This document shows, piece by piece, positions 7,042 to 10,000 of a DNA stretch of 64,000 nt. The notes below the pieces were generated by a model. That model was not told where the DNA came from, searched no databases, and saw nothing but the letters and a program-made list of their open reading frames with translations. Numbering within the stretch: the first letter of the stretch is position 1; each line of letters starts with the position of its first letter. The translations under genes were made by a program, and so were the position numbers. Source of the stretch: Heptranchias perlo (lineage: Eukaryota); NCBI RefSeq assembly GCF_035084215.1, contig NC_090333.1:28272001-28336000 (forward strand), given 5' to 3'.

Positions 7042-10000
7042 GTACAGCTGTGCCAGAAAGCATCCTGTTTAAGTTGTAAAGCAGGCTGGGGCTGAGAGGC
7101 AAGGAGCTGCTGCAGTGCAGGGTTTTTTCGCTTTTACATCCCCGCCTAGAGGTTGAAAGTTTAATGGGTTCTGGTCAATTAGAGTACGACCCTTGCCCAT
7201 TTCTGAAATCTCTTTTTAATTTACTGAATTTCGCGTTTGTGGTTCGAGCGAGATGGTAGTTTACCTGTGAAGCAGAGGTTAAATGAGGAGGGGTTTTTTC
7301 CTCGAGGTCCATTTGTGATCTTGGCTTTCGCAGATCGTTTATGTATGTATAGTTTAGTGGTTCCCTTTTTAAAAGTAATGGGCACTAATGTTTTGAAATT
7401 GTTAAAATTGGATGTATTTTATGTTGGAGCCTACAGTCTCGGTGTCTTACTCTTGATATCCACATAGCACGCGTCTGCGATTTGTGTTTCTAAAATGACA
7501 TTTTTTTTTCTTTGTGAAAAACACAGACTGTACCTCAAGTACATTTTCTTGTAATTTAAACTTCCCCCCCATATTTTATCTCTATCTAACTACACAACTG
7601 ATTCCACTTTATGAAGTGGTTCAATTATTTAACCGCCTGGCTTATAAATGCGAGCTGGGTGTGAATGTAGGTTAACATTGGGATTTGTACGTTTAGCGGC
7701 GTTTGAGGAGGAGGAGGAGGGGGGGGGGAAACTAACCAAGTGAAACTTCTAATTAATTACCAACATTCAGAACTTCTGTTTTAGCTTTAATTAAACTTCC
7801 CCGGGGCTTTTTTTTTTCCATTATGGACAAATGCTGGTTTTAAGCTATAGGAAGATCCTGACGTTATGGACACGAGTGTATTGGGAGGGGCGGGGAGATG
7901 AAATAAGTGGCCAATGAAAAGTCAGTGATTCTCCAACACTGGGCTGGCTGGTTATGGGATGAGTGGAGATGATTTGAGATATAAGGCAGGCTACTTTCTC
8001 TCTCCATAGAGGATCAATCATTGTTCCTCTAACGGCAGGAATATTCTGAATCACATTACTAGGTTCTAGATGACCTCGCTTGCTTCCGTGTGAATGACAT
8101 TGGCAGGGAGTGGGAATTCTGTTCAGACTGACTTTTTAGGTATTGAATCTTTAAATATCCGTTTGAGGATAACACTGTTGGGAAACCGGCGCTGCAGTGT
8201 CCTATAACTGAGTTGCATCATCTCTCTCTCTCTCAAGCCACTTCGTACTGCCACGTGTCTGAATTCCTCCCGGTGGAAGCGGAAACCTCTTTCCGTCACT
8301 CTGCAGGAATGAAGGGGGAGCCCAAAATATTCCAGTGGGGAAAATATAGGACGTTTACTCATCGCTTCTCGCTAAGCTTAAATATAGACGGGCTACCTAA
8401 CAGTTTAAACGATTTCCCTTATCTAACCCGTTATACTTCATTGCATTCACCCTGAATTTGGCGATTTCTATCACATCTGTAAAGTCTTCTGTGCTGCTCA
8501 TGTATGATGTGGAGATGCCGGTGATGGACTGGGGTTGACAATTGTAAACAATTTTACAACACCAAGTTATAGTCCAGCAATTTTATTTTAAATTCACAAG
8601 CTTTCAGAGGCTTCCTCCTTCGTCAGGTGAACGATGTGAAATTAAATTTCCCCGGGAAGTTTAATTTCCCCGGGAAGTTTAATTTCACATCGTTCACCTG
8701 ACGAAGGAGGAAGCCTCCGAAAGCTTGTGAATTTAAAATAAAATTGCTGGACTATAACTTGGTGTTGTAAAATTGTTTACAACTGCTCATGTATAGCATT
8801 TGATTTTGGTGACGATATTGCTTTGTTTCAAAAGAACTCTTGAAAGATATATTCTGTAAATAGAAAATCAAAGTTTTCCCACTTTTTTTGAAATCCGGTC
8901 ACACGAAAGGGGGGGGGGGGTTATACAGGCTGTATTAGAAAATAAAAGTAAAACACTGCGGTTGCTGGAAATCTGAAACAAAAAAACTCAGCAAACGCTG
9001 GAGCCACTCAGCAAGTCTGGCAGTATCCGTGGAGAGAAGACGACAGTTGGCATTTCAGGTTTAAAACCTTTCCTCAAACTAGCTTTATACCTGAAACGAC
9101 AACTGCCTCGTGTTTTCTCGACACAGGTTTGCTATGTTGGCCATGGTAAACCGGTAGGCATAGCGTGTAAATAATTAGGTTAATGGAATGCGGTTAGTGG
9201 TGTCCTCCATATTGTTTCACTTGCGATTTTCAGAACTTGTGCACTTGAATGATTTGAAACCTCCTTGCTTGTGACCATAAGAGATAGGAATAGGCCATTT
9301 GGCCCTTCGAGCCTGCTCTGCCATTTAATGAGATCTTGGCTGACCTGTTTTTACCTCAACTCCACTTTCCTGCCTTTCCCCATTGTGGCGGTTGCATTGG
9401 TGTCAATGGGACTGTCTCACTTCTGGACAAAGAAAAAAAAACCTCCTGAAATGATGGCAGTGCTTACTACTTACCATATTGCATGAGCCTATTACCTGAT
9501 GCAAACTACATCTGTGCATTCATAGATTGGAAGAAATGCATAAGACATTGATGGCAACTAATATGCCACAAGGACATGTGTTATTGGACTTAATTTAGGC
9601 AGCAGCTCTCTGCTCTCCTTACTCTGTTAGATGTGCACCCAAATAATAAACATTGGGGAGTCAGTGTTATTGGGTTGTCCAAGTTGGACACTAAAGTTTA
9701 GATCAGTTTTTGACGTACTAGCTATTATACAGCAATACTTTGAAAATAGCAATTACAAGTGCACTTTTGTTGCACTTGGAAAAGTTTTATTATCTGTCCA
9801 AGAGATGTGGAGGGATTCTAACTGGTTGTATAAGGTTTTTTTTTTTGGGGGGGGGGGGGGGGGGGGGGGGAAAGAGAAGAGAGAAAGAGATTGGACTACT
9901 TACTCATTCTGCTTTTAGGATTGAAAATATTCTAATCGTAATTTACCCAAAAATAGCCATTTGTTTAAGTATTAACAGTTCATAGCCTTAAGATCTTTGC

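Follow-up and report, generated by a model that had tools for sequence, protein, structure and literature searches.

Dispersed through a stretch of 64,000 nucleotides from Heptranchias perlo (assembly GCF_035084215.1, contig NC_090333.1, positions 28,272,001 to 28,336,000 of the forward strand; hereafter the window, meaning this whole stretch, whose first letter is position 1) are six short motifs that a sequence-only reading had taken for two families, A and B, of minimal hammerhead ribozymes from at least two lineages of Penelope-like elements (PLEs). The locus raises the question of whether these motifs are real ribozyme sequences, to which elements they belong, and whether self-cleavage takes part in making their copies. 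Judged from sequence, the six are real minimal type I hammerheads in the tail ends of two abundant PLEs. It is very likely, taking the explanation as a whole and including the mechanism proposed below, that A is a young and B an older endonuclease-bearing PLE of the Neptune type, with the hammerheads situated in their pseudo-long terminal repeats (pLTRs).

Hammerhead motifs in the window

The coordinates and strands proposed for the six motifs proved correct, the core is intact in each, and counting along the sequence places the two predicted cuts where they had been expected:

8693-8731, plus strand: minimal hammerhead of family A, carried by the short inverted arm of the 8506-8782 insertion, with cleavage predicted after 8726
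8593-8631, minus strand: minimal hammerhead of family A, carried by the main arm of the 8506-8782 insertion, with helix II beginning in a G.U pair
43210-43248, plus strand: family A minimal hammerhead in the second family A insertion
6146-6182, plus strand: family B minimal hammerhead in the truncated pLTR fragment 6131-6242; predicted cut after 6178
50011-50047, minus strand: family B minimal hammerhead in a truncated copy
52596-52632, plus strand: minimal hammerhead of family B, in a truncated copy, with AUGU disrupting the palindrome of helix III

The layout of CUGANGA, an extra A, a 5-bp helix II, GAAA and NUH is intact in all six. With a helix-checking descriptor that required the core, at least 3 bp of helix II and at least 4 bp of helix I, the matches in the window were exactly these six motifs, compared with a mean of 0.12 in 200 order-2 Markov simulations (zero matches in 179 of them, maximum 3). 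Several finer claims needed adjustment. The family A sequence as first described fits the copies at 8693 and 43210, and the copy at 8593-8631 departs from it by the C>T change that creates the G.U pair. The 4-nt palindromic helix III ascribed to both families is present in five of the six motifs (AGCU in A, ACGU in B), the exception being 52596-52632, in which AUGU gives a helix III duplex energy of +2.6 kcal/mol versus -1.7 kcal/mol for the intact palindrome. The six dispersed motifs represent five 5'-truncated insertions, since 8593 and 8693 are the two arms of one. Besides, the list had missed several decayed family B copies and a seventh motif cut at its 3' side, which is situated in the inverted arm at about 43164-43207 (minus strand) and stops one base short of the cut.

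The G10.1-C11.1 pair (consensus >80%) is present in family A, with G.U in the 8593 copy. Rfam gave no hammerhead among its 10 window hits at E<=10, and its microRNA hits over 8598-8722 and 43178-43228 are merely the inverted arms of family A insertions.

Genome-wide abundance

Copies were counted by exact patterns in the 3.25-Gb genome. The family A 35-mer has 8,213 exact matches and the family B 34-mer 1,925, with 0 for the control in both cases. A genome-wide descriptor search, which had been suggested as a check, supported the ribozyme assignment with 97,237 generic motif matches versus 1,079 for a reversed-pattern control, that is, a net of about 96,000 motifs, a roughly 90-fold excess and about 30 minimal hammerhead motifs per megabase. 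A narrower count that allowed only C or T at N7 yielded 50,541 matches (441 in the control) and misses large G7 subfamilies. An anchor placed downstream of the A ribozyme yielded 86,370 matches, even though one of its positions was restricted to three bases. In a previous survey that used another descriptor, about 9,000 motifs were reported for Xenopus and about 4,000 for coelacanth (PMC4209133); the present count is about ten times the largest one there, a comparison that is made across different descriptors.

Element identity and architecture

Genomic copies of both families run upstream into coding sequence for reverse transcriptase (RT), a CX4CxxC linker and a GIY-YIG endonuclease, and the RTs of A and B share 32% identity over 495 residues, in agreement with the earlier suggestion of minimal ribozymes from at least two PLE lineages. 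Among 30 family A loci, two (L009 and L030) reach into the GIY-YIG frame, and a further locus, L061, is a partial tandem consisting of a 5'-truncated unit, a pLTR, an open frame and a second pLTR, with units 99% identical to each other. Its open reading frame (ORF) has 912 residues with Met at residue 11, leaving 902 codons, and the ribozyme of its internal pLTR has one core substitution. The family A protein (P0001) matches RVT_1 (E 2.8e-10) and GIY-YIG (E 8e-5) in Pfam and carries a DKG motif, and both Cys of the GIY-YIG CCHH are present in the A copies L062-L064. Among 30 family B loci, L055 and L057 reach into broken RT, CX4CxxC and GIY-YIG frames, where the GIY-YIG match (E 1e-3) is below the Pfam cutoff. 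The linker was read in translations of both A (L009, L061) and B (L055, L057). When loci were picked by the N-terminus of the B ORF, 4 of 30, two of which look like one duplicated locus, had the B hammerhead in sense about 700 nt upstream, and in these four the sequence continues past both 3' ends to the ORF start. B copies are about 80-90% alike. A CX2-5CxxC linker together with a C-terminal endonuclease marks the Neptune group (PMC8557442).

The order of a full-length unit is pLTR (containing the hammerhead and two alternative 3' ends), ORF start, RT, CX4CxxC, GIY-YIG and the next pLTR. The two 3' ends are 35-37 nt apart, and their distribution is bimodal in both families (112 A copies and 79 B copies). 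Counted from the predicted cut, the short end, the long end and the ATG are located at 55, about 92 and 92 nt in family A, and at 68, 103 and about 139 nt in family B. These ends and distances match the tail of the Poseidon element PAc of Anolis carolinensis, which has been attributed to RT initiation at two internal sites (Frangieh et al. 2024, PMC11167929). Genomic copies are mostly 5'-truncated, often with an inverted arm; most span 110-280 bp without coding sequence, and 5' ends form a continuous spread that reaches the coding region for GIY-YIG and RT. A pile-up of truncations just upstream of the ribozyme is an impression only, since extents measured across inverted junctions come out too long. 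Partial tandems with pLTRs, 5' truncation, inverted 5' copies and a tail of 30-40 bp were all found.

Several side observations concern the structure of these units. The six-base palindrome of helix III in the hammerhead forms the midpoint of an inverted insertion at G000:C1:2628682-2628773. On one strand (G000:C1, e.g. 3119795-3128906 and 4460979-4467227), a G7 subfamily of clade A repeats at a spacing of about 3.08 kb, which suggests head-to-tail arrays of full-length units. Directly after the family B cut (window 6174-6205, and in all B copies) come UUAAC, which resembles a branch point, a stretch of pyrimidines and CAG. In Penelope an intron abuts the ribozyme, and the CAG after the B cut may be a 3' splice site; the B strand is pyrimidine-rich throughout and contains several such CAGs.

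A third hammerhead family (C17, 4-nt loop II) was also noticed, in eight near-identical large units 8-22 kb apart (L076-L083, L136-L139; G000:C1:927781-1017683, minus strand). In the four units examined, ORF1 has 754 aa (with a frameshift in one unit) and gives a weak hit to GDSL/SGNH esterases (E 0.012), and ORF2, with RT, CX4CxxC and GIY-YIG, shares 32% identity with family A. PMC5408684 mentions fish PLEs of a Neptune-like type that carry an esterase.

Covariation and core conservation

The sequence-only reading regarded the helix differences between A and B as a covariation signature. The alignment was made of 37 distinct variants chosen by hand, 25 from the 37 listed for A and 12 from the 28 listed for B. 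A rows that a truncation junction seemed to have cut were left out, as were many B single mutants, a choice that biases the alignment towards pairing. RNAalifold recovers helices I and II unaided, and 92% of the cells are paired in the named structure versus at most 46% with the register slid. However, most two-sided cells reflect the A-versus-B difference, which is a single phylogenetic contrast and was counted as one event. What stands of the signature is the independent compensatory changes among the A subfamilies: the outer pair of helix II occurs as G-C, A-U and C-G, at the middle pair of that helix G-C replaces A-U, and in helix I the fourth pair has gone from U-A to C-G.

The conservation of the core was examined on copies anchored downstream of the ribozyme. 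For alleles shared within clade A, none of the 11 core columns varied versus 18 of 56 in the flank (p=0.03, 95 of 112 copies kept), and the figures for unselected clade A copies, meaning those chosen without regard to the ribozyme (49 of 66 kept), were 0 of 11 and 15 of 56 (p=0.06). The extra A and U17 are also without a shared variant among the A subfamilies. N7 varies among C, G and U, and variation is likewise seen in the loops and the helices, partly compensated. On the other hand, private substitutions are no rarer in the core than in the flank, and the intact motif is missing in 20 of the 66 unselected copies. In sequence terms, the family A pattern fits selection in the source elements followed by neutral decay after insertion.

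Is cleaved RNA the template for insertion?

If cleaved RNA were the template, copies should begin or end at the cut. In one A subfamily group, the element sequence continues across the cut site in 43,789 copies. The count of 5' junctions was 69 at the cut itself, compared with 27 at the position three bases upstream and 213 at the position three bases downstream. The junction patterns need three non-matching bases before the junction, and base composition leads to an estimate that each catches about 40% of the true junctions; with this correction about 0.4% of copies begin at the cut. One of 30 inspected 5' junctions at the cut was an internal deletion. Thus, there is no peak of 5' junctions at the cut in this group and fewer than 0.5% of its copies begin there, which implies that cleaved RNA is rarely the template. 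For 3' ends, 18 matches were obtained at the cut (by eye, 7 true ends and 11 internal deletions or duplications), 12 at -1 and 5 at -3, the latter two being raw, uninspected counts; the +3 control was unusable, with a subfamily variant dominating its 396 matches. The junction census agrees with an in vitro study of the anole element, in which insertion was unaffected by core mutations and none of the RNA-seq reads had its end at the cut, even though the element RNA did cleave with its protein present (PMC11167929).

Insertions, relics and host genes in the window

Besides the six motifs, the following features were located in the window:

8506-8782: 5'-truncated family A PLE insertion, minus-strand arm reaching the long (tail) 3' end near 8506
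8494-8505 (left) and 8783-8794 (right), plus strand: perfect 12-bp target-site duplication flanking the 8506-8782 insertion
43164-43336: second family A insertion, main arm 43206-43336 (plus strand) to the tail end, inverted arm 43164-43207 (minus strand)
43151-43164 and 43335-43348: 14-bp target duplication flanking the second family A insertion
6131-6242, plus strand: family B pLTR fragment, about 750 bp upstream of a putative Polo-like kinase start codon
about 49961-50155, minus strand: truncated family B copy, then an inverted upstream piece at 50162-50407 (plus strand)
about 52522-52719, plus strand: truncated family B copy that holds the 52596 motif
24123-25307, minus strand: longer decayed family B copy with pLTR (24123-24463) and 3' coding pieces (24968-25307)
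8940-9080, minus strand: decayed family B pLTR fragment with a mutated hammerhead core
near 12083-12258, 13836-13890 and 36201-36287: similar family B relics
28889-29647, minus strand: Tctex-1 family ORF
57572-57934, plus strand: BTB-domain exon

The plus-strand inverted arm of the 8506-8782 insertion reaches the short 3' end near 8782, and a palindromic, duplicated junction separates the two arms; it consists of a short palindromic unit at 8642-8682, tandemly duplicated, which probably arose during template switching. The exact junction pattern of the inverted arm at 43164-43207 has only 12 matches genome-wide. No microsatellite targeting is evident at the two A insertions of the window. Around the three B copies with motifs, whose fragments are about 110-200 bp long, a target duplication could not be identified with confidence. 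The 24123-25307 copy is 72-78% identical to the loci L119 and L144 (blastn). A 1-kb C-rich minisatellite (51560-52550) lies within or beside the pyrimidine-rich pLTR of the 52596 copy, and B matches flank it at 51560-51612 and from 52522 on, which suggests that it expanded within the B element.

A Polo-like kinase gene spans about 6900-20700 of the window (plus strand), with exon 1 near 6900-7038, exon 2 from about 10312 and Polo boxes near 18.9 and 20.5 kb, so the 8506-8782 insertion is in its intron 1. The order of Polo-like kinase, Tctex-1 and BTB recalls PLK3-TCTEX1D4-BTBD19, to which these genes may correspond. The domain scan covered 287 of 374 listed ORFs, those omitted being mainly over known repeats. 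Other features were a diverged U1 snRNA copy at 48925-49091 (minus strand, 54.7 bits, under the Rfam gathering score), probably a pseudogene; a MITE-like 22-23 bp inverted repeat around about 100 bp at 37825-37973; and, separate from this repeat, a DDE_Tnp_4 transposase fragment at 33611-33847 (plus strand).

Proposed mechanism and alternative explanations

In the mechanism that we propose for these Neptune-type elements, the element protein would bind the RNA of the pLTR/ORF junction, and by analogy with other PLEs reverse transcription would start internally at two sites on uncleaved RNA, giving the two 3' ends. Early stops and template switches would then yield short and inverted copies, and the ribozyme, being about 55-100 nt from the priming sites, would be multiplied passively. 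In tandem source transcripts, two hammerheads may pair via the 4-nt palindrome, probably helped by the protein, and cut slowly after U17; this cut would process or limit the tandem transcript rather than make the insertion template, and the window copies would be relics. Internal priming, dimer pairing and protein-assisted cleavage are inferred from other PLEs (PMC4209133, PMC11167929; review, PMC6765202).

Folding in context points in the same direction as far as the window is concerned. Helix II has a pair probability of 0 in all three A motifs, each of which pairs with its own antisense arm. In the B motifs helix II reaches 0.9-0.99 for two and 0.35 for 52596, and helix I at most 0.15. Hence, the window motifs are probably inert, those of A being predicted to be buried in long hairpins and those of B to lack a partner in cis. 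U17, a slow cleavage base, extends the palindrome to six bases, and in these models the six-base duplex (-4.3 versus -2.5 kcal/mol for A) could compete with the active fold.

Some points weigh against the explanation given here. The selection test in clade A is borderline, on 95 copies (49 unselected), and in family B there was no signal of core conservation (recurrent alleles in 4 of 11 core versus 34 of 68 flank columns, p=0.52), plausibly due to CpG decay. The pair 10.1-11.1 is A-U in 10 of 12 aligned B variants and G.U in 2 of 12. The 3'-end counts of 5, 12 and 18 rise slightly towards the cut and are too few to read. Cleavage, its dependence on a dimer and its assistance by the protein are assumed by analogy with other PLEs, and the Neptune label is given on sequence motifs (linker, DKG and C-terminal endonuclease) instead of an RT tree. 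Finally, two protein queries, for each of which the 150 top-scoring matches were considered, gave no intact B ORF (longest open frame 673 aa), from which, together with the similarity among B copies, B appears to be older than A.

The alternative that survives best accepts the same elements but regards the motif as a folded protein-binding or regulatory signal without useful cleavage in vivo. The lack of a genomic footprint of cleavage agrees with it, as do the anole core mutants without insertion effect and the lack of reads ending at the cut (PMC11167929); furthermore, U17 could pair with A14 of the partner in the six-base duplex, and B does not have G10.1-C11.1. Nevertheless, the 11 core positions, the extra A and U17 are unvaried among the A subfamilies, whereas N7, which catalysis leaves free, varies, and such a pattern is what catalysis predicts. 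The motif of the anole element also cleaves with its protein (PMC11167929). We therefore consider this alternative rather unlikely, though it deserves to be taken seriously.

Another explanation, to which the sequence-only reading had also alluded, is that the copies are non-autonomous retrozymes or SINE-like mini-elements replicating as hammerhead-processed circles. Most copies are indeed as short and non-coding as this would require, and retrozymes derive from PLE pLTRs (preprint 10.64898/2026.07.22.740005). But here 5' ends are scattered into the coding region and 3' ends fall at two fixed sites downstream of the ribozyme, ends at the cut amount to less than 0.5% without a peak, and no head-to-tail array of non-coding monomers was seen in the window, whose copies are dispersed or inverted ends of coding elements. 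The retrozyme reading is largely refuted for these copies, in which it is unneeded, and we assign it very little probability.

It is even harder to believe that the host has domesticated a window copy for use as a regulatory ribozyme, for instance in intron 1 of the Polo-like kinase gene. The 8693 motif is in the sense orientation there, but it is one of 8,213 identical 35-mers, the insertion that contains it is recent and has a perfect target duplication, and folding predicts that the motif pairs in full with its antisense arm. Chance matches are refuted, given that a short descriptor which finds 1,079 matches in the reversed-pattern control still leaves 6 versus 0.12 in the window, a 90-fold genome excess and a fixed position in two element families.

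Returning to the two Neptune-type elements, one further idea is that their ribozyme acts as a protein-gated switch outside the template path: a dimeric element protein would join two pLTRs, and the cut would free a translatable unit or brake surplus RNA. We put this forward tentatively, as possible and somewhat doubtful.

Comparison with known systems and implications

Minimal hammerheads have been described in the pLTRs of metazoan PLEs, including Xena, Poseidon and Neptune of fish (Cervera and de la Pena 2014, PMC4209133). The present motifs share with them type I topology, a short helix I, the unpaired nucleotide between 9 and 10.1, the palindromic 15.2-16.2 without loop III, location in both pLTRs, a predominance of single motifs in truncated copies, dual motifs on opposite strands and the frequent U17 (Fig. 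S3 of PMC4209133). Family B differs in its A10.1-U11.1, a minority state also found in their list. Every structural feature emphasized by the sequence-only reading (extra nucleotide, palindrome, dual motifs and frequent U17) is thus already in that paper; the kind has been known since 2014, and the copy number is the notable part. The exact A and B sequences are not among the 56 motifs of its Fig. S3, and its supplement file 2 gave no cartilaginous fish for the terms tried. No text tying such motifs to cartilaginous fishes was found, with subscription papers and Repbase/Dfam outside reach, so that absence from print is not established. One chondrichthyan genome was surveyed in the retrozyme preprint (10.64898/2026.07.22.740005), the supplements of which may list families A and B.

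PAc of Anolis carolinensis (PMC11167929) resembles both families in three respects: its hammerhead is located where pLTR and ORF meet, its two 3' ends are separated by 30-40 nt (the tail), and there is no evidence that cleaved RNA is the template. Unlike A and B, it belongs to the Penelope/Poseidon clade, is without a linker Zn finger and starts its ORF inside the ribozyme, whereas A and B have the CX4CxxC linker and begin their ORF after the cut, with the ATG 92 nt downstream in A and about 139 nt downstream in B. Protein-assisted cleavage has been shown for PAc, and A and B are known here from sequence alone. Endonuclease-bearing Neptune elements (Craig et al. 2021, PMC8557442) have in common with A and B the C-terminal GIY-YIG with CCHH, the CX2-5CxxC linker, the DKG motif, partial tandems, inverted 5' copies, the 30-40 bp tail and the pLTR hammerhead; the A insertions of the window differ in their 12-14 bp target duplications and in showing no evident microsatellite targeting. 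Metazoan non-LTR retrozymes (PMC7229834; 10.64898/2026.07.22.740005) likewise have a type I hammerhead with an unstable helix III and are related to PLEs, but they are tandem non-coding monomers, in contrast to the dispersed truncated ends of coding elements found here.

The value of the finding is above all quantitative, namely a density of about 30 minimal hammerhead motifs per megabase. In family A there is a young element whose ORF is open, for which natural variants that include compensatory changes, as well as the junction census, are to hand. Annotators should be warned that intronic hammerheads of this type are mostly passive relics. If the idea of a protein-gated switch is true, a cut 92 nt before the start codon would release a translatable unit or act as a self-limiting brake, the inverted arms of dead copies would silence their own ribozyme as long hairpins, and a genome with about 100,000 copies would be a natural experiment on the purpose of the PLE hammerhead.

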